A stretch of DNA of 64,000 bases, taken from positions 2,865,370 to 2,929,369 of the forward strand of contig MU057744.1 of the NCBI GenBank assembly GCA_013265495.1. Direction: 5' to 3'. Of the stretch, positions 44-64,000 are shown one piece after another; within the stretch, counting starts at the first letter, position 1, and the number at the start of each line of letters is the position of its first letter. The translations under genes were made by a program, and so were the position numbers. The stretch comes from Vicugna vicugna (lineage: Eukaryota). A model generated the notes under the pieces. That model was not told where the DNA came from, made no database searches, and saw only the letters and a list, made by a program, of their open reading frames with translations.

Positions 44-2324
44 TTTCTTTAAGCCCCAATATTTTTTAAATTGAAGTACAGTCAATTACAGTGTGTCAGT
101 TTCTGGTGTGCAGCACAATGTGCCACTCATGCATATACATACATGTATTCATTTTCTTATTCTTTTTCATTAAAGGTTATTGCAAGATATTGAACATAGT
201 TCCTTGTGCTATACAGAAGAAAGTTTTTTAAAATCTAGTTTTATATATAGTGGTTAACGTTTGTAAATCTCAAACTCCCAAATTTATCCCTTCCTACCGC
301 CTTTCCCCTGGTAATCATAAAATTGTTTACTATGTCTGCAAGTCTGTTTCTGTTTTGTAGATGAGTTCATTAGTGTCCTCTTTTTTCTATTTTCTTTTTT
401 TTTTTTTTAGATTCCACATATGAGTGATAGCATATGGTATTTTTCTTTCTCTTTCTGGTTTACTTCGCTTAGAATGATGATCTCCAGTTCCATCTACCAT
501 CTATGTCAAATGGCATTATTTTATTCTTTTTCATGGCCGAGTAGTATTCCATTGTATAAATATACCACAGCATTTTTATCCAGTCATATGTTGATGGACA
601 TTTAGATCATTTCCATGTCTTGGCTGTTGTATATATTGCTACTATGAACACTGGGGTGGTTGTGTCTTTTGAGTTCAAGTTCCCTCCAGATATATGCCCA
701 AGAGTGGGATTGCTGGGTCATATGGTAAATGTATTTTTAGTTTTTTGAGGAATTTCCATACTGTTTTCCATAGTGGCTGCACCAATTTATATTCCCACCA
801 GCAGTGTAGGAGGGCTCCCTTTTCTCCACAGCCTCTCCAGCATTTGTCATTTGTGGGCTTTTGAATGATATGGCCATTCTGACTGGTGTGAGGTGATACC
901 TCATTGTAGTTTTGATTTGCATTTCTCTGATAATTAGTGATATTGAGCATTTTTTTCATGTATCTATTGGCCCTTGTACGTCTTCACTGGAGAAATGTCT
1001 CTCTAGGTCATCTGCCTGTTGTTTGATTCAGCTGTCTTTTTTTGTTATTGACTTGTATGACCTGTTTATATATTCTGGAAATTAATCCCTTGTCAGTCCT
1101 ATCAGCTGCAAAGATTTTTTCCCATTCTGTAGGTTGTCATTTTATTTTGCTTATGGTTTCCTTTGCTGTGCAAAAGCTTTTAATTTTAATTAGGTCCCAC
1201 TTGTGTATTTTTGCTTTTATTTCTATTGCCTGGGTAGACTGCCCTAGGGGAACATTGCTAAGGTTTATGTCAGAATGTTTTACCTATGTTTTCTTGTAGA
1301 AGATTTATCTTGTCTTGTCTTATATTTAAGTCTTAAAGCCATTTTGAGTTTATTTTTGTGTATGGTGTAAGGGATTGTTCTAGCTTCACTAATTTACATG
1401 CAGCTGTCCAGTTTTCCCAGAACCACTTGCTGAAGAGACTGTCTTTTCTCCATTGTATATTCTTGCCTCCTTTGTCAATGATTAATTGATTGTAGGTCTG
1501 TGGGTACATTCCTGGGCTCTCTATTCTGGTCCATTGGTCCATTTGTCTGGTTTTGTGCCAATACCATGCTATTTTGATTACTGTAGCTCTGTAGTATTTC
1601 TGAAGTCTGGGAGGGTTATTTTTCCAGCTTCATTTTTTTCTTCAGTATTGTTTTTGAAATTCTGGGTTTTTTGTGGTTCCATGTAAATTTTAGGATTATT
1701 TGTTCTAGTTCTGTGAAAAATGTCATGGGTAGTTTGACAGGAATGACATTAAATCTGTAGATTGCCTTGGGCAGTATGGCCATTTTAACAATATTGAGTC
1801 TTCTAATCCAAGGGCATGGGATATCTTTCCATTTCTTTAGGCCATCATTAGTTTCCTTAATCAATGTTTTGTAGTTCTTCATGTATAAGTCTTTCACCTC
1901 CTTGGTCAGATTTAATTCTAAGTATTTTATTGTTTTGGATGCAATTTTAAAAGGGGTTGTTTCTTTACCTTCTTTTCTTGCTATTTCACTGTTAGTGTAA
2001 AGAAATGCAACTGATTTCTGTATATTAATCTTGTATCCTGCTACCTTGCCAAATTCTTTTGTCAGCTCTAGTAGTTGTTGTGTGGAGCTTTGAGGGTTTT
2101 CTATATATAGTATCATGTCGTCCGCATATAATGACAGTTTTACCTCTTGTCTTCCAATTTGGATCCCTTTTCTTTCTTTCTCTTGCCTGATTGCTGTGGC
2201 AAGGACTTCCAATACCATGTTGAATAGAAGTGGTGAGAGTGGGCATCCTTTTCTTGTTCCCCATTTTAGTGGAAAGTCTTTCAGTTTTTCACAGTTGGCT
2301 ATTCTGGCCGTGGGTTTGTCATAA
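44..2324 (-). mobile_element. 5'-truncated young LINE-1 (camelid-type), ORF2 3' half plus 3' UTR, with 14-bp TSD
   Basis: Minus-strand ORF pieces match L1 ORF2: [18 protein letters not shown] (RT) and [17 protein letters not shown] (C-terminal Cys-rich domain). T-rich tail at the left end. TSD ATACAGTAACTTTC at 30-43 and 2325-2338; the empty site TTTC/AA fits the L1 endonuclease consensus. Confidence 0.97.
675..2324 (-). pseudogene. Disrupted L1 ORF2 (reverse transcriptase and C-terminal domain remnant)
   Basis: Homology is split over frames (1616-2455, 1333-1542, 737-922, 675-959). The L1 part starts at IYDKPTA; the N-terminus of the 279-aa ORF is flanking DNA. Confidence 0.93.
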
Positions 2325-3235
2325 ATACAGTAACTTTCAAGAATGTTAAAGCTCATGGGATAAGCCCTCAGTTCCCATCGACTTTTTGTGATGTAACTAT
2401 CAATTCTTGTTGAATTTTTGGAAAATTGTGAAATGAAGGGAGTGGGCTCACACATCCATCTTGCGGTGTCTCACCCTCCATTACCTTGAATGTTTTGCTG
2501 AGTTGAGTTGAGAGGTCCAGCTGTTTTCAAGTCCAAGTGGTGATACACCTGAATTTTGGGAGTTTTAAACTAAACGTCAGAGCCTTTTCTCCTACTGCTG
2601 AAATGTACACAATTTACACTCTCGCCATAAAGTGCTGCTTGACATTGACCCTGGAACAGACCTGTCTCTATACACCCCACTCAGACTGCCTGTGGTTGAC
2701 TGAGACCAAGATGCTTCCTGAGAAGAAAGGTCACTGTGACCTTGAGAACAGAGCACTGGACACTTAGTATCAGCGAATAGGAGGTGAGCAAATCTTATGC
2801 CTGGTGGAAAAGGTATTGGGGGTCTCAGAAGAGCCCATTAGAGATGCAAGAGGCCACGTGTACATTATCTGTTGAAATATTCATGTTCTTCCTTTAAGGA
2901 GGTTTTGTCTTCTGACCTGCAAAGAAATGTCTGGTCGTTTAATGGAAACTATTATTTTTTTAGTAAGAAAAAAGATCCCACAATTTATATGAAACATTCT
3001 ACCTTTGTACAATTGTTCATTTACACTAAGAAGAAAAGCAAACCCTCTTCTTCTGAGCATTTTAAAAATTGTAAGAACCTAGTGTATTTCCTAAACAAGA
3101 TTCATTATATTACATATATTTTGGCAGGGAAAAGGAAATTATAATACAAAACCATCATTGAGTTTTTGCTTCACAGCTACGATAATTTGCCTTCTTTCCC
3201 TATCGTTGTTAATTCTTTCCTCTGGCCAAATTGAC

Positions 3236-11330: not shown

Positions 11331-11399
11331 TATACACCAAATACCTGCTAAAGGAAAACCCGATGGTGAGAACAGGATAAATCAACATGCGAGGATAAC

Positions 11400-12620
11400 G
11401 ATGCGTCATGACGCACTAGCGTTGCTGCAGCCGTGGTCGCTGAGACCCTGCGAAGCGCTCCCGGCTCTGGGGGGCGGGGAAGGGGAGCGGGACAGGCTGG
11501 AGTCGGATCAGGGTTAACCGGCAGCGGCGTGAAGGGGGACGGCACCGGGCGTTTGGAGGGCGAAGCAGCTGCGCCGGGTGATAAAAGCCAGCCCATCTCA
11601 CCGAGGGGAAGCGCGTCAGGCCCGGCGCCGAGAGCTCAGGGGCAGAGCGAGGGCGCCCGCAGGCCCGGCCGCTCGGGCCTCCGCCTCGCCCCGTCCGCGT
11701 GTTGCTTTGACCCGGGCGCAGCTTGGCCCGCGCCGGGTCGGCGGACACGCCAGAAGCACGGTCTGCGCCGGCGCCTCCGACACACACCCGGAGTCGGGCT
11801 GACGGAGCCGTCCCTGAAAGCTCCTGATTGGCAGTGGGGGTCGTGGCCCCCGGGGAAGCCTGGGTCGCTTACACAGGAAGGGAAGCAGACGCCCGTTTGG
11901 GGAAACGAACAGAACCTCCAGGAACCGACGCGACGTTGTAGGCTGCCCGTACTTCAGGCAAACAAGCAAGCGAACACGCCAACCTGTGCCTCCTTCTGGA
12001 GAAGGAGCAACCGTCAGCTGTGACAAGGAGACGACGGGGTGAAGGCGGGGCGGCACCCGGGGGACTCGCTGGCGCCGCGGGCGGAGGCGGCCGAGCTGCG
12101 CGGGGAAGGCGAGCGCGCACCGGGGAATATATGCGCACATTGTGCGCATATATACGCACATCTGTTGGGTTTTCACACAGGGTTTTTTTAAGTCCTGATA
12201 CTGTTACCCCAAAGCGGATGGGAAAAGACCCCAGTTCCCGTCTTACTCTGAAGATAAGAAGTCAGACGGGAGACAGACGCGTTGTGTAGCGAAAGATTTT
12301 AACGGTTTTATTACCGAGCGCGGGAGGCGGGCTGATCCGAGGGGGGCGGATGGCAGTGGTCCCCGCCTGCCCGCCTCTCACACCCTCGCTCGGAGGTGGC
12401 CTCTTGGCTGATGGACAGCTCTTGCCACAGAGTGCTTCCTCGTGCTCGCCCCCCTTTGTGCACATCCTCGCCGTGCTGCGCACGGAAAAGCCCACTGGTG
12501 GGGTGCAGTTAGGTCCCCGTCGCCACCGCGCCGTCGTGGCTGTCGGGTTCTAGCTGGTTTCTCGCTGGCCCTCCTCTAGGAGGTGAAGCCCCCTTGTGCT
12601 GGAGGCGGGCACGCTGCCAT
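11400..12620. promoter_or_regulatory. CpG-rich island (function unknown; possibly partly L2-derived)
   Basis: Dense CpG; ATTGG (reverse CCAAT) at ~11827; GGCGGGGCGG at ~12044; two palindromes (11402, 12127). Confidence 0.6.
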
Positions 12621-12879
12621 CTTCCGGGCCCTCCTCCCCCACCTCCACCCGTCTGCCCGGGGCCCCCACTCATCCAACTGCCCGACAGTGGCACTGGGCT
12701 GCAAAACACTGAGTGGCTCAGGTGACAAAACCCCTAGTATTTGGAAGGGAAATGGTAATAGGATCAATAACCGGGCATTCATTTTTGAGAATTCAGGAGC
12801 TCATTCAGCAGCATTCAAGGTCCTGGAGTTGAGCAGTGGACGTGACAGCAGTCCCAGAAGACAGAACATGGACAAATGA

Positions 12880-13680: not shown

Positions 13681-14544
13681 GGCCCCTGTCCAAGCTTGGT
13701 CCTCTTAACAAACTGCCTTTTTTCTACCTAAGGGACTTCGATTCGGATAGCTGATGTCAGCCAGTCCCGGTTCTGGGTTTGACTTATGTATACCATAAAT
13801 AGAACATTTTCTAGTCCTGGGTTTTCCAGCCAGAGACAGAGGAGGGCATGGTCCCTTGCACCCACCACTGGCCTTGCCTGGTCCTCACGGCGTCTTGCTG
13901 GAATGCCGTGGCCCCGTTCTGCTGTTGTTCAGCCTGGAGGAATGTGGTGCATGGACTGCAGGCTGATGCTGTGGCAGCTGGATGGGAGGGTGATGATGTT
14001 AAGATGTCAAGAATTTGGTGGTGCTGACCCCCAGGACACCCAGCTGTGCCCTCCAGCTGTGAAGTGCCTGTCGTGGGCGTCAGGAGTTAATAAGCAGAGG
14101 CCGGCTGGAGGAGAAGGCCCCCCTGGCACCCGCCAGCCCACTTCCAGCCCCCAGCCAGCCTGACGTGGTCCCCAAAGACCATGGCCATTCCAGGAGCAGC
14201 CCAGCACTGTGGGTTCTCTAGTGCTGACCAATTGCCAGGAAAAGTTTCTCTGAGATTAGTGTAATGAAAAAGACACACGCGCCATCCTAGGAGAAGAGAA
14301 CTCATACTTGATCCAAGCAAACACGTCTGGAGTCTCCACCCCCTGGGCAGCGCCACAGCCCAGGTACACGGGCGGCGGGCACCTACTTGACGCGGTCTGC
14401 CGCAGAACGTCCCTCAGGTCTGCCTCAAATGACACTGGGCAGAGCCCGCCCTAGGGGTGCCGTGACCCCTAGACGTATGCTAATACCGTGAAAGTGTCTC
14501 CATTAAAAAAAAAAAGCCACTTGTTCTATCATTTATAATCCAGC

Positions 14545-14850
14545 AGTGAATCCATTAATGTAACAAACAGTTACTGAGCACCTATTACATACCAGGCTTT
14601 GTTTAAAACACTGGAGAAAAACAGTCAAAAGGCAGAATTCCTGCGCTGGTGGAACTTCTTTTCCAGTGAGGGGTGACAGGCATTAAACATGAGAAATAAA
14701 TAAATCATGTACTACATAACATGAGACAAGAAAGCAGAAGAGGGGATAGGACTGGGGGGCGGGGGGAGCTGTGACCCGGCATGCAGAAGCCGGGGGTTGG
14801 GCCTCACTCAGCTGGCAACACCTCAGCAGAGACCTGAAGCCGGAGCTGCC
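14545..14850 (-). mobile_element. L2 3'-end remnant
   Basis: AACAAACAGTTACTGAGCACCTATTACATACCAGGC is a typical reverse L2 terminus. Confidence 0.7.
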
Positions 14851-16014
14851 ACGTACGTTCTGCTCAGGAAGCTGCTCTCAGCGCCCGAATGGGGATTTGG
14901 CCGTCCTCTTCTTTTTACGCCTTATTTATTGAGGTGCATTTTGCGCGTGGTGTGGTGCGGTGCAGGTTGATCACGCTGCTTGTAAGATGTGGAATGAAAC
15001 GACGCCATTCTGGGGCCGTGTGAGAAGAGCTACGGCCGTGGCATAGGTGCTGCGCGCTGTGTCAGGGGGACACCTGGACTCGGTCACCGCCCGTTGTGGG
15101 AGGACGGCGCACCCGAGGGTGCTCCTGAGCTGGCAGGTTCTGTTGGATGGGAAGCCTTTGGCGGCAGAGACAGAGAGCAAAGAAGCAGAGTGGCAGCTGA
15201 TACCTCCGGTTCCGCCGGCCCAGAACGGTCCCGTTCCTCAGGACCTGCCCCCTCCTAGGACCCGGCCCGCGGTGCCCTGCTGGCAGCGGCCGGGTGCCGT
15301 CCTGGCGGAGCGGGCAGCCGGTCTTGCGGCTCAGGCTGGGCGGTCTGAGCCTCCCTCCAGGGGTCTGGGTTCAGGGTGTCTCTGCGCCTAAAAGGGAGGG
15401 CGCAGAGAACCTGGAGCTGAGGACACCATGCACTTTTAGGAGAGGACCTAGTCCATCAAGTGGGAAGAATAAAACTGATGTGCAGAGAGAAAAAAAGGTA
15501 TAGAGACCAGGTACCTGCAGAGAGAACGGGCTGAGACAGTCCCGCCCCTCAGAGGCTGCCCAGCCCAGCCCCAGCCCCTCCGAAGCCCAGCGGCGCAGCC
15601 TGCTCTGCGCTGGCTGGGACATCCCTGTGTCTTTAATAAACACATCCACGGGCTCTCAGGTCATAATCCTCCCCTTTCATTTATTTTCTTAAGATATTTG
15701 TAGGTTTTTTTCCCCCAAACTTACAAATGACAAAAACATGCATAAAGCCAGGAACGAAACAGGGCTTCGGTCAGCGACTCACTCATCTATCTGAACAGAC
15801 TGCAGTGGTTCCTAGAGGCAGTGAATGAAGAAAGTACAATGAAATTTCTTGCCAGATGGAGGATGGCTCAAAGGTCTGACATGACAGAGAAAGCAAAACC
15901 GAGAGTAACGGCCAGAAAAGCTAATTACCTCCTTAGCAGAGGAAAAGTCATTTACATATTCTGCTTTACAGTGATTTGTCTGCCAAGGTCAAAGTTGTCA
16001 GCTGTAGTGTTTAG

Positions 16015-47950: not shown

Positions 47951-49289
47951 CTGATGGCAGGATTCACTGTAAGATGATGCGGTGGCCTTTGGAAAACCCT
48001 AAATGGCAAGACCTAGGTTTTCTTTCTAGAAGGGCTCGGTTTACCTAGAGAAGAACCCCTTGAACTGCTGATCTTGTTTAAAATCTGACTCCGGCGTTCT
48101 GCAGCCCAGCAGGTGACTGTTGTTCCTCACTTAGTTGGCGCGCGTCCGTCTCACACTCCTTCCTCTTTTCATTCTGCACCTCGCCCTGTATGTTTCAGTC
48201 CCTGGTTTTCCGTAAGCTAAGCCTCTCTGGATCAGCCTCCCACTCCTGCAATGCCTGGAAGCTGTGGTCCTCCAACAGTGTGAGGCATGGGTGTGGGGCC
48301 TTGGGCTCTAACTGCTTCTATTGCAGGCTTCCAGGCTGCACGACTTCCGCCCCATCTCCAGACACACAATCCTTTCCCCATCGTGCTGCCTGAATTTATG
48401 AGTCTTTCCAGAATCCTAAAGAGCAAAGCAACTTTCTTCTCATTGATAACCCACCTTGTAGATATATATCTTTTTTATCTTTCTCTACTTTATTAAATAA
48501 TTTAATTCCTACTTTTTTCTTTCCATCTTCATACCCTGTAATTCAGAATTATAGATGTCTCCTAATTTAATGAGAAATTAAATTAGTGTTTCTACTTCCT
48601 GGCAGAAGCAGCAACATTGCTGAGTTGCAAACATTTCTAAGTTAACTGTTTACATTTAATTTTGGCAAAGGAGTTCCCTTTAACAATCAAGATTCTTGAA
48701 TACATTGCCATTCAGAAACTCTAATTAATAGCACTACTTACAGTGTTCTGTCTCCCCATGTCCATGCTAATTGGCAGCTTTTATTCTAAATATTAATCAG
48801 GAAGTGGTATGGATAGAGGAGCACCCTGTTCAGATTCTCATCCCGAAGACCCGCAGGTGTGATGGTCTTGTGAAAAAAACAGCAGAAACGAACCTCAGAA
48901 CCAGAGTGAGAGGCAGCTGATTCCGCTTTCCTAGTGGAACAGAGAGGACTTCATAAGGAAACTGATATTTCCCCTGTATCTTAAATAATTGCCTTTTTTG
49001 AAGCGCTTTAAAGAGGGGGTTACAAATCATAAGAGAGTGGAGGCAAAAAGCAGACGGCATGCTCAGAGAATGATGAGATATTTGAGAGGAAAAAAAGAGA
49101 CAACGTATGAGGAAGGATTTTGAGGAAAGTAAAAAGCTCACTAAACTCAGAGGAGCAGTACTTTTTTGGTGTCAGTTCCATCTTCTTCCAGGAGTTCTGT
49201 GTCTTCTCCGTGAACAACGCACGTGTGCTTAGCGGTCTGGTTGACGAGGAGCCCACAGATCTGCTTCCGGAGAGCCCTGGAGGCCATGC

Positions 49290-49670
49290 AGCTCCAATTT
49301 CGCGAGAACGGTTGCGGGATAAAGCAGCCTTCTGGTTGTTCACGGCCGAGAGCTGGGCTGCGCGTCGGCGGCTGCGGTGCCGCGAGTCCCGCCGAGTTCA
49401 GCTCGCTGCTGCTGGACAGCTCCGGGCTCGCCGCGCCGCCGCGCGCGCCCCCCACGGCCGCCCGGGGGCCGCCTGCGGAGGCGGCAGGGCGACCCCTCGG
49501 GGCGCCGCCCCCGGGGAGGGCCAGCAGCCCGACGAGCGCCCGGCCGTCCCGGCCTCCGTGGCGCCAGTGCTGCGCGGCTCCACCCAGCTCCCGCCGGGTC
49601 CGGGTCCGGGCGGGGAGAGCGCACCTGCCCGCAGCGGCAGCCGGACGTCAGCGCAGAGCGGCTCTTGGTG
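49290..49670. promoter_or_regulatory. CpG island, candidate promoter
   Basis: Very dense CpG; TTTCGCGAGA (one mismatch to the BANP-type TCTCGCGAGA) at 49298-49307; GGGCGGGG GC box at ~49608; CRE-like GGACGTCA at 49643-49650; no TE homology recognised. Confidence 0.65.
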
Positions 49671-49984
49671 CTTCTTTTCCTCTCCTTTGTACACTCCTTT
49701 GCGTCTGCCCCTTGAGGCTTCCTCCGGGATAATTTGCCTCCAACTAGTTTCTGTACTCGGCTCGTGCCTTCGGGGAAATCAAAATGCAACAAACGCAACA
49801 GATTCTCTGCCTCTGCTGCTCACCTGCTTCTGTTAACTCCGCGTAATTTGCAAGCATCCAGCCCTTTCTGTCTCTTTATCTTAGAGTGAAGAATAATTTA
49901 AAACCATAGGCTGTCATTCAACTTGTTGGCATTGACTTCATTGATATATTTAGAAGAAAGATTCATCTGTGGCACATAAAGGAA

Positions 49985-50160
49985 GAACACTGATCTCAGA
50001 ACCAGAAAACTCATATTTCAGTCCAAGATTTTGCGTCCCGCAGTGGGGAGACGCTCCAGAAGTCATTCTAGCTCTCCAAAGCCTCACTTTCCTGGTGCCT
50101 TGAAATGAAGGTGGTGCAGAAGGTCATTCCAAGGCGCTGGTGTTACGACTCCATGAAATT
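49985..50160 (+). mobile_element. MIR remnant
   Basis: AAGTCATTCTAGCTCTCCAAAGCCTCACTTTCC..AAATGAAGG core. Confidence 0.55.
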
Positions 50161-52409
50161 ACAGAGACAGGCCTGCGTTAGACAAAGCTGTCAGCTGAGC
50201 ACGTTGCCAGGTGGTCAGGTGGTCACGGCTTGGAGCCTCACCGACCCCTGTGGCTGGCCTTCCCCGTGCCCGGAGAAGCTCACCAGCCTCCAGTCCAAAC
50301 CGGTGCCTTGCTTGGATTGTTCCTAATGTTTCAATTACCCATGGCTTTAAATAGACATGATATTTAATTTAAGTAAATAGTGGTTCTACCTGCTTCTAGA
50401 GAATGTAATATAACAAATAAACCATGTAAGCCGGAAATCCGCTGCGGAGGACACACCGCAAATCCCACGCTAACCCCAGGTTGTTCCCCCGTTTCTTGAT
50501 TAGCCGTCTTAAGGAACAGACACGTGTGTAAGTGGCCTTCTCCATGCAAGTCTCCTGGCTTTGTACTGTCGCTCAGTCTGGACCCCAAGGGCGAAGTTTC
50601 TGGACAGAAGGGAGGAGGATCCTGGGGGTGGAGCTTGGATACAGGACAGGCTTTGCTGCTCTAGCAAATAGTCCTAGGGACGCGTTTGCCAGTTCAGCCA
50701 TCCTGAGGCCTGGCTCTGCCGGGAGGTATTACAAGGAGAAAGTAAAATAGCCCCTTTGTTCTGACTCTAGAAATGCTGGAAGGAAATTCCTGTTCATAGC
50801 AGATGATTAAACAAGCTTTATTAGGGGCCATTGCATGGAATCCGTCCAAACTGCTGCTTTGTTGCAATAAAATAGGGTCATTTTCCTATTTTTTCATTAA
50901 TTTACATTTAAATTTAAGGTAGAATTAATTCGATTGATCAATAATTTGATAACTCCAAACTGGCTGCCAGAGTCTTAGAAAGACACTTTTATAACCTGGT
51001 TCCTTAGAGCAGTATACTTCTCCACCAATTTCCCCCAAAGACAGAGGAAAAGGGAGTTAATATCTTGGGGCAAGATGTGGCCGTGGACCTCAGAGTGTCT
51101 AGCAACAAGCATGAAATGCCGCCAAAGCCGGCTCCTTCATCTTAAACCTCACAGGGATTTCCTCCTCAGTAATAAACTCAGCTTAAATCAGTTTCAATAT
51201 GATGTATACAATTATTTACTGGTTACTTTACCCCATCAAAGTGTTTAAGGAAGAATAACCATTTGGATGCTGTGTTTCAGTCTCATACCATTTGCAAGGA
51301 TAAAATAGAAAGATTTCTCCTCCTTCTCCTGACACCCCTAGACTGTCCCTGTATGACGTACTCACACTGGGAGGTAGGTGCCCCGTGCATCATGAAGCAC
51401 ATCCTCCGTGCATCTGAAATCCTATCTCATGTCTAAGTATGAAAGTCAAACGGCAACTCCATCATCCTTGCAGGAGAAACATAGGGATCAAAGGTAAAAA
51501 TTGTCTCTCAAGTGAAGTGGGAAGAGGGGGATATTATGGTCTTTATATTTTGAGGCTTCGCAATGCGTGTGTTTAGCTCCCCACCGCCTCCCTGCCGGAC
51601 GCGTCCAGGAACGCCTCCTGGCAGCTGGCATCTGACCGGCCACAGTATCGGGCATGGATTCTAAGTGAGCCCACAGGGTTCAACAAAAGCATCCATCGCT
51701 CTCCCTAGGTCCCTTTTTCCATCTCACAAATGCGCTTTTCCCTTTCTTCACCCTTGTCCTTTCCAAGCCCATCATTGCTCACATCAGAGCACATTTTTGT
51801 AATTGTTCCCACCCCACATTTCCCATGTGGTAGGGGCTGTTGTCACGTGAGAGGAAGGCAGAAATAGTCTTCCTCCTTCCCCTTCAGTCATGGTTTTTGG
51901 ATTTTGTGGTGATGAAGTCATTACATCTCCTTGCCTAACAGTTATTACCCTGCTATACATGAATCTGGTAAGTTTGATGGTAAAAATCTGCCAAGTGCTT
52001 TGGCTGTCACAGAACAGCAACCTTTCTATAATGTCTGCTGTGATTTCTATTAGATGGAGACAATTTAGGGTATGTTTTATTGGCCCATTAATAAATGACT
52101 GAAGTGGTAAAGCTCTCTGGCTAGGAGCCTCGTTTCTTGCAAGCGAGATGTGGGTTAATGGAGCAATTAAACATACTTTCATATCCCAAGGCTGTAATAA
52201 TATTGGGAAAAGTAAGTGAACTATTAGAAAGGAAAGACAACTGTAAATACCTGTGTAAAAGTGAAAAGGAAATAGATGGCGGAGTTTCAAACCGTGGGCA
52301 ATTTATAGGCCACCGGAACTGACGGCTTTACACCTTGTCTTGCCCAAGGAGGCAGCTTGCTTTAGGTCATCTTTGCATCCCAGCGTATTGCAGTAACTGA
52401 GCCGACATT

Positions 52410-57729: not shown

Positions 57730-57950
57730 GAAATTAAAGAAAATTAATTAATGATGGGCTGGATCACATTAATGGATTGTAAGACTCAATATGGTAGAGA
57801 TACCAGTTCTGCCCTAGATTGATCTGTGACTGAATGTGACCCCAGTCCACAATCCAGTGGGGCTTGGTGCAAAGTGACCACTGGTTATACACGTTTTATG
57901 GAAACGTAACAATTCACAGTAGCCAAGACAGTTTTAACAAGAAGAGAATC
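57730..57950 (+). mobile_element. Old L1M ORF2 fragment
   Basis: ATGGATTGTAAGACTCAATATGG and TAGCCAAGACAGTTTT correspond to the ORF2 WIGRLNIV..IAKTIL region. Confidence 0.7.
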
Positions 57951-58079
57951 GAGCCAGCAGAGCACAGTGATGAGGAAGCCAGGAGGTGCCTGCTGCCGCA
58001 GAGCACACGGTCCTGCGGGGACGTGAGAGTCGGAGCGCAAAACTTCAAAAGAAAAGCTCGTGACGTGGGGTGACACCCA

Positions 58080-58900
58080 GCCTTGCCAGGGAGCCTTCCC
58101 GAGAAAGCGATCTTTAAGCTGAGGCCTTGCGCATGAATGGTGGTTATGCAGGAGAACAGGAGAAGTGGGGGCCTCCTGGGAGAGGGGAATGCTGGCGGGA
58201 ATTCCCTAGGAAAGAGAGACAGCTTGTAAGGAGGGTGGGGGCGGAGCAGAGGGGACCGGAATGGGGGCCGGAAGCAGCGGACACAGCTGGTTGGTGCCGG
58301 CTGACACTGGCGGGCCTCACGGGGCCTGTTAAGGAATTTGTACTTTATGCTACAGGGTAATGTTTTCTGAGGGGGGAGGGCTCAGCTCAGTGGTAGAGCG
58401 CGTGCTTAGCACGCACGAGGCCCTGGGCTCAATCCCTGGTACCTCCGTTAAACAAATACATACGTACATAAATGAACACACCGACCTACCTGGGCTCGCG
58501 CCCCAGCACCTCCGTTAAAAATAAATAAATAAACCTAGTTACCCCCCCCAAAAAAAAACCCTAAGTTAGTATTTTAGAGGCTCCTCTTCTCCCAGGGAAT
58601 GCAGAGATAGAATTTGCATTATCAAAAGACTGCAAAATATTATTCTGTGTGCAGTGGGGAGGATCAGACACAGAAGCTGGCAGAGAAACGAGGAGGGTCT
58701 TCTCGCAAAAGCTGGGGGAGAACAGAACGGCAGCTGTTCGGAGCAGGGGAGTTGAGGCGGAGAAGAAGCGCCGCGGAGGCTGGGACACGCGAGGGCTGCA
58801 CGTGGTCCTGCAGTGCGGGGCGGCGGGGTGGCCTGGGGCCCTCGGGGCGCCGGAGAGGAGGGGAGGAGCCGGCGAGGGCTAGGGCAGGCGGGGCCCCAGC
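58080..58900 (-). mobile_element. L2 remnant, split by a SINE, with a GC-converted distal part
   Basis: GGCCTGTTAAGGAATTTGTACTTTAT and AATTTGCATTATCAAAAGA match antisense L2; distal collinearity is weaker. Confidence 0.6.
58371..58558 (+). mobile_element. Vic-1-like SINE with duplicated 3' half
   Basis: tRNA-Ala(AGC)-like head; a second CCTGGGCTC..ACCTCCGTTAAA unit at 58489; AAATAAAT..CCCC-A tail. Confidence 0.93.
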
Positions 58901-60689
58901 ATCCCCGCCGCCCGGGCGGCACCTCACGGGCGCCAAGCCAAGGAGGGGTCATGGGGGTCGCGGGAACAGGGACAGGAACCTCGGCTGCAGGTCAAAATAC
59001 AGCCCTGGCTCTGTCTGCAAAGGCTGCGGGCCCTTTCAGCCACAGCCTCCCAGAGCGGCTGACAGCCCTGGGAGCGCCAGCCCGTGTATTCAACAACAGG
59101 TAACTAAGAATCGCGTACAGATGCCTTTTAAACGCCTTTTATGATCGTTTCACAAGGACATTCAATTTCGAAATCACACGTTTCTTACTTTGGCGGCGGT
59201 TATCATTATTTTGTGTTCTTGGGCACACACAAACTCTGGAGCTTGTAAGATGACGGGAGAGAAATTCATGCGTTAAAATTATACCACAGATAATCCGAAG
59301 TAAATGAGGCACGTTAAAAAGTTAAATCCATATATTATAACACTTGTGTGAGTGGAGTCACTGGAGTCGTAATGAAGCACACACAGTTTTATTTCACTTT
59401 GTTTCACTTAAGAACAACAGTTCCCCTCACCAGAATAACTATTGGTGGGCAGAAGTCACCACGATGCGGTTTCAGGGGTGACGGGACACTGAACGTGAAT
59501 CCAGCTTCTGCCAGCCATTAACTTCTGCCACATTTGACAAGACATCCACACCTGGAAAGCCTGTTTCCACCCCCACAAAATGGGTTTCATCAAGAGATCA
59601 AAATAACAGAAATGAAAGTGTCCAGTGCAGTGAGACAGCACACATAAATGTTACGCACGACACTGACTGCGGTCCCGGCCATGACGCTGCCTCAGCTGCC
59701 AGGTTTAAGGCGTTCTCTTGCTTTGCAGTTGTTCTCAATCTTGATATTTCTCATGCACATTCTGATTTTTAAACCTCGATAAACGTGTAAGTTTATGAAA
59801 TTTTGGGGGACTGAATTTGAGGGCAAGGAGTGATGTGTTGAAGGTGTAAGTTGGTGAGTCCCAGGCGTAGGGCTGCTGGGCCGCAGGCGGGAGAGGCCTG
59901 TCGCCCAGTGACGTGAGTTGTGCAGCAGGAAGAAGGTGTGGAAATGGAGGTGAGGGGAGAAGAGGGGCTCCGCCGGGCCACACGGCATTGGTCACCCTCA
60001 GTCTGTGGTACGGCAGCCTTGGCTGTCGAGGGGGTGGCTTGGGTCCGGAACACGGAGCAGCGGGGCAGGGCCCGGGTCTGAGGGAAGCCCAGACGGCACC
60101 AGGAGCTGGGAGAGATGGAAACCAGAGCCCACCTTCCAGCCACACGTGGTGTCATCAGAACAACTGCAAGCAAAACAAAAGCAAGCGAAAGGGTAGAGGA
60201 AAGGAAATGCAAGCCCCCCCCCCCCGCTGGTCCCGGTCCCCTGTCTCCCTCAGCACCTTCTTGGGCGGCTGCAGGCCTCTGCCCAGTAGTCTCCTGCTCA
60301 GCTGTCCTGGGGCAGAGGGCCAGCTGTCACCTCCGCTTTCCAGCTTCTACTGGAGAAGCCGGCCGTTCGCAGGTGCTCACCAAAGGTGTTCATGATGAAC
60401 AGGTAGAGGGTGCCTGGCGAGGACGAAGCTGAGTGCAGCTCCAGCCCCTCCCTGCATGAGGGCTCTTCCTTTAGGATTCATGAGTGCATGTCATCTCTTC
60501 CCGAAGAAAACTCGCCACACCGTGGAGGCTATGGTTTGCACAAAGCCAGGGTCCGTCCCTGCCTGCAGAGTAAAGTCACAACATCTCGAGCTGGAAAGGA
60601 CTTTAAAGGCCACACGGCCCTCCCACATGGCAGGAATTCCTCTGCCAGCGTTCTCTAAGAATCACCATCTGAAGGAGGGAAGCTGCCAG

Positions 60690-60850
60690 TGGTGTTTGGA
60701 TTTGGCTCTGTCACTTACCCAGTTTCCCCAGCTCTCAAAGGGCAGTGCTATGAGTTTCCTGAAAAGGAAGTTGTGAGAATAAAGTAAAAGTTCATAGCAC
60801 CGTAGCCAGCACAAAGGTGGGGTTCCAAGGTGATTGCTACTGTCATTGTT
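60690..60850 (+). mobile_element. MIR remnant
   Basis: TGGCTCTGTCACTTAC..CAGTTTCCCCA..GTTGTGAGAATAAAGT..AGCAC. Confidence 0.6.
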
Positions 60851-61240
60851 CTCTGTTGGGACGTTTCCTGAGATGAAAATCTCACCCCGTCTGTAGGACA
60901 GACGGACACCGTGTAAAGGTCAGGCCAGGTCTTCCTTATCATGAGTGGAGCCCACGTCCCCAGAACTTCCTCTAGAACTGCATAATGTGTTTACTCTCGC
61001 TCCCAGAGTCTAAAAGGGCCATTCATGTCCTGTAAGTCTTCCAAGCAAAGCTGCGTCCTTTAACCATTAATCAACATGTCTTGCAACCCATGAGGCACAG
61101 CCCAGTGCCTGGCATTTAGCAAAGTTCAGTGAATGCTTTTAAGTAAGAGAATGACAAAGGGGACACGTGAGAAACGAAAGTGAATCTCAACCATTCGACC
61201 CTTGGCCCTCCCTTTTAAAAATCTAGTGGACAGACTCACA

Positions 61241-61380
61241 TTTTTTTTTATTTAAAAAAAAATTCTTGGTGGGGGTAATTAGGTTTATTTATTTACTTAT
61301 TTTAATGGAGGTACCGGGGACTGAACCCAGGACCTCATGCCTGCCAAGCACACACCCTACCACTGAGCTGTCCCCTCCCC
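61241..61380 (-). mobile_element. Vic-1-like SINE
   Basis: TTAATGGAGGTACCGGGGACTGAACCCAGGACCTC..CCACTGAGCT matches the other copies. Confidence 0.92.
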
Positions 61381-61649
61381 ACAACAAACCCATGCTGAAG
61401 AATCAAAGCCGTTCTGTCCCAGAGCGCCAAGGAGTCTCACTTCATACAGTCGACCTACTGCTTTTATTCTCTTACTACAAAGAAAGCTGTATAAGTTTTT
61501 AATGAGTTAATCCCAAGTATTTCTTAGTGAACTTTAGACCAGCCGGGTCTCCCCATTCTTGAGAGCAGGAATCGGGTGCTACTCAAGTTTGCATTCTCCA
61601 CCTTGTCTTGGACCTAGTGCTTTGCAGTGATTAGACACTCAACATATTA

Positions 61650-61940
61650 TTTTTAAAATTTGAACTAGGACTTAACGTGTAGAAATAGCACATTCTAAGC
61701 GTGCAGTTTGATAAATTTTTACATACGTATTTACTTTGCTAAGCACCATTCAGATCAAGAAAGAACATTATCCTCACCCACAAATTTCTTCTTCCCCCTT
61801 ACTGGTAAGTACTCCCCTCCACTCAGGTAACTACCTGCGCCACCGAAAGTTAGTTTACTCTCTTCTTGACTGATTTGACTGCTAGTCAACTTAAAATAAA
61901 TGCATGCATTTATTTCTGGGATTTCTATTATTTTCCATTG
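61650..61940 (-). mobile_element. Old L1ME-like 3' end; its sequence resumes at ~63716-64000
   Basis: Breaks at TTTCTATTATTTTCCATTG and resumes at TTGTCTCTTCC..GCCAACACCAC..GTAGCTTTATAATAAATC, which are contiguous in L1 ORF2 (compare 1520-1600). Confidence 0.65.
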
Positions 61941-61945
61941 TTTTT

Positions 61946-62078
61946 AAAAAAACTTCAAAAAAATTTCTATTTTGGGGGGGTAATTTTGTTTGTTTGTTTC
62001 AAATCGAGGTCCTGGAGATTGAACCCAGGACCTCGTGCATGCTAAGCATGTGCTCTACCCCTGAGCTACACCCTCCCC
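61946..62078 (-). mobile_element. Vic-1-like SINE with 13-bp TSD
   Basis: TSD TTCCATTGTTTTT at 61933-61945 and 62081-62093. Confidence 0.94.
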
Positions 62079-62099
62079 ACTTCCATTGTTTTTTAATTC

Positions 62100-63715
62100 T
62101 AATTTTTTTAAACTTTTTTTTTTTAGCTCAGTTTTAAGCTAACAGCTAAATCAAAGGGAGGATACCAAGATCTCCCATTACCACCTGTGTGCACACACGC
62201 ATGGCTTCCCCAAAATGAACATCACCCACCAGAATGCTACATGTGCTACAACAGATAGAGCTGCATTGGCGCATCTTAGTCACCCAGAGCCCACAGTTTA
62301 CGTTACAGTTCACGCTCAGTGCTGTGTGCTCTGCGGACACATTTACACTGATGTGCAGCCATCAGTTTGGTATTAGAGTATTTCCATTGCCCTAAGAACA
62401 CTCTGGGCTCCATCTCTTCATCCCTCCCTCCCCTCCAATTACTGGCAACCAGTAATCTTTTTACAGCCCCTGTAGTTTTTCCATTTTTTTATCTCATATG
62501 GTTGGAATCATATGTAGACTTTCCAGATCGGCTTCTTTCACTTAGCAATGTTCATTTAAGGTTCTTCCTCATCTTTTCATGGCTTGATAGAGCACGTACT
62601 TCATTTTAGTGCTGAATAACATTACATTGTCCGATGTATCAGTTTATTGATCCCTTCACCTACTGAGGGAAGTCTTGGTGGCTTCCGGTCTTGGCCACTG
62701 TGAATAAAGCTGCAGTAAATATTCAAGTGCAGGTCTTTGTGTGGACATATGTTTCCTGCTCCTCTGGATAAATACTAAGGGGTGCACTGGTTAGGTCATG
62801 TGGGGAGAGTATATTTTGTTTTGTAAGAAACTGCCAGAACGTCTTCCAAAGGCTTGTTCTGCGCTCTTCCCAGTGATGAAGGGGAGTTCCTGAGCCCCGC
62901 GTCCTGCTGAGCACCTGGCGCTCCAGATTTGGTCCCCCTCGGGGTGCGCAGTGGGGCCTCCCGCTCGCCTTAATCTGCATTTCCCTGATGCCGCAGTGTG
63001 GAGCGTCTTTCACACGCTGCTTTGTCATGTGTGTGTGTTCCTCACTGAGGAGTCTGTTAAGGTCTGTGGCCCACTGTTTGGCAGGATTGTTCTTTTCTTA
63101 CTGAGTTCTAAGAATCGTCTGTATGTTCTGAATAATGGTCCTTTATCCAGTGTGTCTTCTGCGAATGTTTTCTCCCAGTCGGTGGTGGCGTCTCTTCTCA
63201 ACCTTTCGGCGTTGTCTTTCACGGAGCAGAAGGTTTTAACTTTAATGAAGCCCGCCTTATCAATGATCCCGTCCGCGAATCCTGAAAACTCGCGGCCACG
63301 CCCCAGGGCGCCGAGGTTTTCTGTGCCGCCTTCTGGGGGTTGCGCGGTGGTGCGCGCGCGGCGCGCTGCCCCGTGGCGGGGCTGGGGGTGGGGGGTCCGC
63401 GCCGGGTCGCAGCGTGAGGCCCGGGGTGGCTGTGCGCTGCCGCCGGAGGGGCTCGTCCACCGTCTCGCCTTTGTTCCTCTGCCCACGGGGAGTCGGCCGC
63501 CTCCCCGGCCTGCCCTGCGCTCTCTGTGTCTACCTCTGCTCCGCGCCACCGGCCCTCTTCCTCTCCGCGCACAGCGCCCACGGCGACTTGGCGACGCAGC
63601 TTTGCCGTCTGTCCGGAGCCGGGCGATGTCTAGTCTTCAGCCTCGCCGCCTCCGTCAGCGCGTTTCGGCCGTTCTGCGTCCGCTGCCTCTTCGCGTGAAC
63701 CTGAGACTCTGCATC
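62100..63715 (-). mobile_element. L1MC1/2-like element whose 63.28-63.7 kb part is GC-converted
   Basis: 3' UTR collinear with 41944-42615; minus ORF reads IDKAGFIKVKTFCSVKD..DWEKTFAEDTLDKG (L1 ORF2). Confidence 0.88.
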
Positions 63716-64000
63716 GCTGTGTTGTCTCTTCCTTCTGCCAACACCACGATGTCCTAATTACGGTAGCTTTATAATAAATCTGGTAGGAAGTCTAAAAGCC
63801 CAATGTTTAAATTCCTCAGTATTGTTCTAGCGCCTCTATTTCCCTGCATTTACCAAAAAAAGTTAGGCTGCCCGTTAGTTTATACACACGTGCAGCGCAC
63901 GGACTTCGCCTGGGGTCCCGCCACAGCTGTAGACCGGAGAGACCCAGCACCCTGCAGTGCTCAATGTTTGCTGGCGGAACCTGTTCCATCTTTTTTATTT

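Follow-up and report, generated by a model that had tools for sequence, protein, structure and literature searches.

The locus examined here raises the question of how a CpG island came to lie in the remains of an old L1 element. It sits near the right end of a 64,000-nucleotide stretch of the Vicugna vicugna genome, the whole of which is referred to as the window. With 446 bp (positions 63270-63715), a GC content of 0.72, 61 CpG and a CpG observed/expected ratio (o/e) of 1.05, this segment, hereafter the patch, is a CpG island by the usual definition (length ≥200, GC ≥0.5 and CpG o/e ≥0.6). In 200-bp windows along the sequence, the GC content rises sharply here to 0.70-0.78, from 0.42-0.47 at a distance of a few hundred bases on both sides, while the 64 kb as a whole have a GC content of 0.47 and a CpG o/e of 0.55. 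A sequence-only reading had proposed that the patch is an old L1 ORF2 segment rewritten chiefly by A/T→G/C (W→S) substitutions. It counted 51 G+C among the 60 bases at 63361-63420 and 17 among 60 at 1321-1380, in a younger L1 of the same window, and both counts are exact. This younger L1 is a 3' fragment on the minus strand (60..2330), which is not intact and whose longest ORF has 279 aa.

The whole patch is collinear with the 3' part of L1 ORF2. From this genome we took 29 L1 copies covering the segment in full, aligned them and made them into a profile for nhmmer. In the homology test, the patch was globally aligned to each paralog and compared with dinucleotide shuffles of itself. Under an asymmetric score that expects W→S changes, the alignment to the 29 paralogs reached a z of 19.8 (63324-63705; 200 dinucleotide shuffles), and under purine/pyrimidine coding it reached a z of 10.1, with none of 300 shuffles scoring as high. 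A cruder and weaker test, MAFFT identity, gave 0.511 against 0.438±0.020 in 60 shuffles, whose maximum was 0.485. Four of six 72-bp blocks were significant, namely 63274-63345 (z 15.0), 63418-63489 (z 4.8), 63562-63633 (z 7.2) and 63634-63705 (z 11.6). The remaining two had no L1 homology above that of shuffles, with z values of 0.7 and -0.3 at 63346-63417 and of 0.6 and 0.6 at 63490-63561 (W→S and purine/pyrimidine scoring, respectively). The collinearity asserted by the sequence-only reading thus holds for the patch as a whole and for four of the six blocks, and these two blocks are silent. Its three anchors (63456/1449, 63596/1583 and 63671/1659) were found where it had placed them, with an offset of 62007-62013 and ungapped identities of 18/30, 18/28 and 18/36, and all three fall in significant blocks. 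The length is also collinear, as 436 patch bases correspond to 482 majority columns, the differences being six deletions, each 6-18 columns long, and 24 bases that were inserted. No Pfam family, and hence no ORF2 protein domain, was matched by the ORFs across the patch (63028-63636 and 63222-63629 on the minus strand, and others), as one would expect of so heavily altered a sequence from this portion of ORF2.

Ordinary searches lose the L1 alignment at 63267-63323 and pick it up at 63722 on an AT-rich copy. With blastn against the younger L1 (1-2330), 62476-63258 was aligned at 58.6% (E 4e-23) and the next match was 63722-63826, with the sequence from 63722 onward placed at 1543-1652. With nhmmer, a hit at 62768-63323 (E 4.6e-76) was followed by one that resumes at 63722-63866 (E 1.3e-9). 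Among 39 L1 paralogs of the genome recovered with 63100-63900 as the query, all alignments end at 63261-63270, which is the start of the patch. For nine of these 39, taken together with their flanks, the alignments begin at 62080-62086 and end at 63264-63274.

The arrangement of these matches points to one L1 nested in another. The patch already reaches profile position ~1010, and the alignment at 63722 restarts back at 857. Accordingly, ~150 bp of L1 sequence are doubled side by side, once at 63562-63705 with a GC content of 0.68 and once at 63722-63866 in AT-rich form. We interpret the first copy as part of element A (62089-63706, minus strand), an old L1 3' fragment comprising the 3' part of ORF2 and the 3' UTR, and the second as part of an older L1, element B, into which A, truncated at its 5' end, appears to have inserted. 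The poly(A) tail of A is represented by a T-rich run at 62089-62125, near the host L1 remnant. The patch is the 5' end of A, forming its last ~440 bases as read here, with an uncertainty of ~10 bp in the position of that 5' end. The left remnant of B (61905-61940, minus strand) has 36 bp, with an nhmmer E of 0.027-0.08 and a 28-bp match at 93% to paralog L004, adjoins the tail of A and ends at profile position 850. The right part of B (63707-64000, minus strand) resumes at profile position ~851-857 and extends past the window to at least 64330. Because the host ends at 850 beside the tail of A and resumes at ~851-857 after A, a tandem duplication as the source of the doubled segment was dropped in favour of nesting. 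The candidate target-site duplication (62082-62088 and 63710-63716) has only 7-8 bp with 2 mismatches. The B/A junction is further occupied by a tRNA-derived SINE (61946-62080, minus strand) with a 13-bp direct repeat (61933-61945 and 62081-62093), whose tRNA-like part (62004-62076) was called tRNA-Ala-like by ARAGORN. A second tRNA-derived SINE head lies at 61306-61377 on the minus strand, and an Rfam search of 60000-64000 returned nothing but two tRNA-like SINE heads. The nesting explains why the second and third anchors have an AT-rich double 130-170 bp to the right, since B carries its own copy of the same L1 segment. The sequence-only reading had taken the AT-rich sequence near the patch for the same element. 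This is correct to the left, where it is A, and incorrect to the right, where it is B; the nesting and the two silent blocks had been overlooked. With one copy on either side of the edge of the GC-rich patch, the doubled segment forms a natural pair for comparison.

As a proxy for the ancestor we took whichever base 50% or more of the 29 paralogs share, so that substitutions were polarized by paralogs rather than by orthologues. As background, each paralog was compared with the other 28 over the same columns (leave-one-out). The reported counts come from the MAFFT alignment retaining inserted bases, in which 412 patch bases were aligned and 216 were identical to the paralog majority. W→S changes were found at 161 of 257 ancestral A/T sites (120 transitions and 41 transversions), a number that is somewhat inflated because ancestral CpGs are partly missed when the majority is taken over old copies. 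G/C→A/T (S→W) changes were found at 17 of 155 ancestral G/C sites. The four homologous blocks alone gave 104 of 176 and 15 of 110, respectively. Over the patch columns, the W→S and S→W fractions are therefore 0.63 and 0.11, compared with 0.07 and 0.18 in the paralogs; no paralog exceeds 0.12 for W→S, and the patch is more extreme than any of the 29 in both directions, higher for W→S and lower for S→W. The decay usual for old L1 copies is seen in the flanks of A and in the 29 paralogs, which belong to the same family. The count of W→S against S→W changes that the sequence-only reading had suggested as a check, run here against the paralogs, thus gave a strong W→S bias.

Broken down by class, W→S transitions amount to 0.467 in the patch against a paralog mean of 0.059 (maximum 0.103), a 7.9-fold rise, and W→S transversions to 0.160 against 0.015 (maximum 0.035), a 10.7-fold rise. 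A↔T (W↔W) changes remain at background (0.023 against 0.022, 1.0-fold), and S→W transitions amount to 0.084 against a mean of 0.151 and a minimum of 0.104. As W→S transitions and transversions are both raised with A↔T at background, the pattern suggests a fixation bias, not hypermutation. On the other hand, S↔S changes are raised 3.9-fold (0.077 against 0.020, maximum 0.045), which hints at some misalignment. Misaligned columns produce apparent W→S changes from composition alone, so the two silent blocks and the S↔S rise make the counts for part of the patch uncertain. The majority sequence over the patch columns contains a single CpG and has a GC content of 0.37. Of the 61 CpGs of the patch, just 1 falls on a CG of the majority, and 22 fall on TG or CA. 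Nine paralogs picked by flank similarity alone carry 1-6 CpG in the corresponding 450 bp, at GC contents of 0.33-0.37. Judged against these paralogs, the CpGs of the patch arose de novo, and the proposal of an old L1 ORF2 segment rewritten chiefly by A/T→G/C changes into a CpG island was borne out.

The bias extends beyond the patch at lower strength. In the flank of A, the W→S and S→W fractions are 0.297 and 0.149 against backgrounds of 0.092 and 0.209, and a minor GC peak within A (62868-62967) has 26 of 52 ancestral W sites now S. In B, the W→S fraction is 0.33-0.50 for ~300 bp past the junction and 0.19-0.27 further out. Across the right edge of the patch, it drops from 0.48-0.60 to 0.33. 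This edge (~63716; 63700-63725) and the A/B junction coincide to within 10-20 bp.

We consider GC-biased gene conversion (gBGC) to be the best explanation of the patch and probably the correct one, an agent that we infer from the substitution pattern alone. Class-specific W→S change, lowered S→W change and flat W↔W change are the pattern that gBGC predicts, and the W→S-enriched flank of A together with the overall composition of the window is as expected in a high-recombination region. According to this explanation, A, truncated at its 5' end, would have landed in the still older B, and its first ~440 bases would afterwards have accumulated W→S changes at ~12-13 times the rate of the family's other copies. 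G/C→A/T changes would have been slightly less frequent than normal, and A↔T changes would have kept to the ordinary rate. Repeated initiation of meiotic recombination at or beside the patch would have favoured G/C alleles in heteroduplex repair, and this transmission advantage may have fixed W→S mutations far more often than neutral ones. Such a hotspot would have persisted for long and would probably belong to the PRDM9-independent, CpG-island type. It may also have reinforced itself, as more CpG would bring less methylation and hence more breaks. Under the assumption of an even bias since insertion, the relation B/(1-exp(-B)) gives an estimated strength B of ~12. S→W changes are only 0.6 times the background, which is not consistent with a single constant strong B; either an episodic history or changes older than the hotspot would account for this. 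The coincidence of the patch edge with the A/B junction counts against gBGC, which does not predict it.

The alternative that survives best concerns the two silent blocks. The GC-richest core (63346-63417) has a GC content of 0.85 and is G-rich, and it may be either saturated L1 or replaced sequence. With its CGCG stretches and its runs of 4-6 G, it may represent a seed of G-quadruplex type or one derived from slippage. In the replacement reading, which we hold to be possible but doubtful, the core and 63490-63561 would consist of GC-rich sequence put in the place of L1, for instance through slippage or expansion of CG or G runs or through small insertions, and the core may have seeded the hotspot. 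The near-zero block scores given above speak for replacement, as do three deletions inside the core, in which 6, 10 and 12 majority columns are lost. Its G-richness, with a GC skew of +0.15 at 63300-63499, points the same way, since T→C changes on this strand should give C-rich sequence. However, patch and majority remain roughly collinear in length, Tandem Repeats Finder reported nothing in 62000-64000, and saturation alone could wipe out the L1 signal at a GC content of 0.85. Replacement would in any case cover 144 of the 436 bases and is compatible with gBGC as the main explanation. The seed of the putative hotspot may have been this G-rich core or the L1-in-L1 junction.

Less probable, in our judgement, is a working promoter or orphan regulatory island, the GC and CpG content of which would come from selection or germline hypomethylation and not from conversion bias. 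The CpG o/e of the patch is at the level typical of unmethylated islands, and the surrounding 82 kb (the window and the sequence beyond it, to 82000) contain ~30 CGI-like segments. Four RNA-labelled sequencing runs contained 5-9% of the sampled words of 62900-63950; these are word shares alone, from which no inference is drawn. Nevertheless, hypomethylation merely slows the loss of CpG and does not convert ~160 A/T sites to G/C, and selection for ~160 changes in 440 bp is implausible. Furthermore, none of the 112 ORFs of at least 90 aa within 44000-82000 reached the Pfam cut-off, with one sub-threshold GGN match. The neighbourhood thus shows no sign of a known coding gene, with the proviso that such a search passes over short exons. 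A promoter or regulatory role would also be compatible with gBGC, because default hotspots sit in such islands.

The other GC-rich segments of the region were surveyed as well. Large islands lie at 11341-12670, 49181-49790 and 68021-69850, and those examined are single-copy. Ancestry from transposable elements was not seen for the GC peaks at 48600-50400 and 14200-15900, both single-copy, and at the peak of 58000-59700 the only such ancestry seen was a SINE at ~58360-58560. An old L1 fragment on the opposite strand was found at 57730-57945 (nhmmer E 1.6e-16). The GC-rich sequence beside it (58000-59100) was considered as a second converted L1 and rejected, as it gave no coherent alignment. TTAGGG was absent from the last 5 kb of the contig, which was inspected for a subtelomere.

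There is only a slim chance that A was GC-rich before it arrived, as a retrocopy of a transcript that started in a CpG island grown on an L1 elsewhere. Prior GC-richness would explain why the patch begins exactly at the 5' end of A and why the W→S fraction falls across the A/B junction. Yet the patch, used as a query, finds only itself in the 2.03-Gb assembly, so that no second patch-like locus is available as a source. A retrocopy would merely relocate the same W→S process, its 61 CpGs would still need maintenance in place, and B itself is W→S-enriched for ~300 bp past the junction. An assembly artefact or chimeric join, which the sequence-only reading had thought raw reads might reveal, can practically be dismissed, because 87-100% of the sampled 31-mers of 62900-63950 are present in 16 independent sequencing runs (at least six studies and two organism labels, several not marked as a possible source) and the L1 alignment passes through both edges of the patch. 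A 24-mer from the patch had no match in a metagenome scan.

A long-lived hotspot has to be reconciled with the PRDM9 status of this genome. PRDM9-directed hotspots are expected to be short-lived, so the presence of a PRDM9-like gene counts against a long-lived one. Such a locus was found at C4951:23343-36386, with KRAB (34.1 bits), SSXRD (64-67 bits), PR/SET split over two exons (44 and 80 bits) and a zinc-finger ORF of 399 aa. All domains lie in open frames of a possibly intact gene; a 207-N assembly gap interrupts the zinc-finger array, and finger matches occur in two frames. A Ribosomal_L39 match (54 bits) in an ORF at L045:4158-4397, flanked by the exons for KRAB and SSXRD, probably represents a processed pseudogene. 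Given this gene with its KRAB, SSXRD, PR/SET and zinc-finger domains, a loss of PRDM9 as in the dog is not the explanation. The fullest version of the gBGC explanation would thus place, in a mammal that keeps PRDM9, a default hotspot born in a dead L1, which fed itself for tens of millions of years until an orphan CpG island resulted, with ~160 biased fixations at B ~12. We put this history forward tentatively and regard it as rather unlikely in its entirety.

The individual elements of this explanation have precedents. According to the available text of Joseph et al. (10.1101/2023.11.17.567540 = PMC11161765), most placentals have active PRDM9-independent hotspots in hypomethylated CpG islands, and sharp GC* peaks result from them. 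There, and for the dog in the available part of Berglund et al. (PMC4350167), gBGC is offered as the explanation of the GC-richness of CpG islands. Like the GC* peaks described in these texts, the patch is a sub-kb W→S peak with reduced S→W change and is CpG-rich. Unlike these studies, which as far as their available text goes use whole-genome alignments and maps of linkage disequilibrium (LD) or double-strand breaks (DSB), our analysis concerns one genome, takes the ancestry from paralogous L1 copies and deals with a putative hotspot. The available text of PMC11170920 proposes that orphan CpG islands can originate through gBGC and notes that a considerable fraction of them overlaps phastBias tracts, and the patch resembles that idea of gBGC generating a new non-promoter CpG island. 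Repeat-derived islands such as the patch are, by the design given in that text, excluded there because CGI calling there used genomes in which repeats had been masked. In human hotspots, strong local gBGC favours both CpG and non-CpG W→S changes, according to the available part of Glemin et al. (PMC4510005). Human hotspots are short-lived, whereas the patch, with ~60% of its W sites changed, needs a very long or very strong episode.

The patch alone illustrates an accepted process in unusually clear form, and the process is not new. Most work on the origin of CpG islands and on gBGC masks repeats and infers ancestry from species alignments; here, dozens of paralogs supply the ancestral sequence. 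As the ancestor is known from them, the locus shows the passage from AT-rich, CpG-free sequence to a full CpG island by what appears to be fixation specific to the W→S class, with no other substitution type elevated except the S↔S class noted above. Such loci, gathered genome-wide, could record the sites and strengths of long-lived hotspots, including in species without recombination maps. If the self-fed hotspot is true, junk DNA would here have become a true orphan CpG island, and the L1 family would be its base-by-base record.
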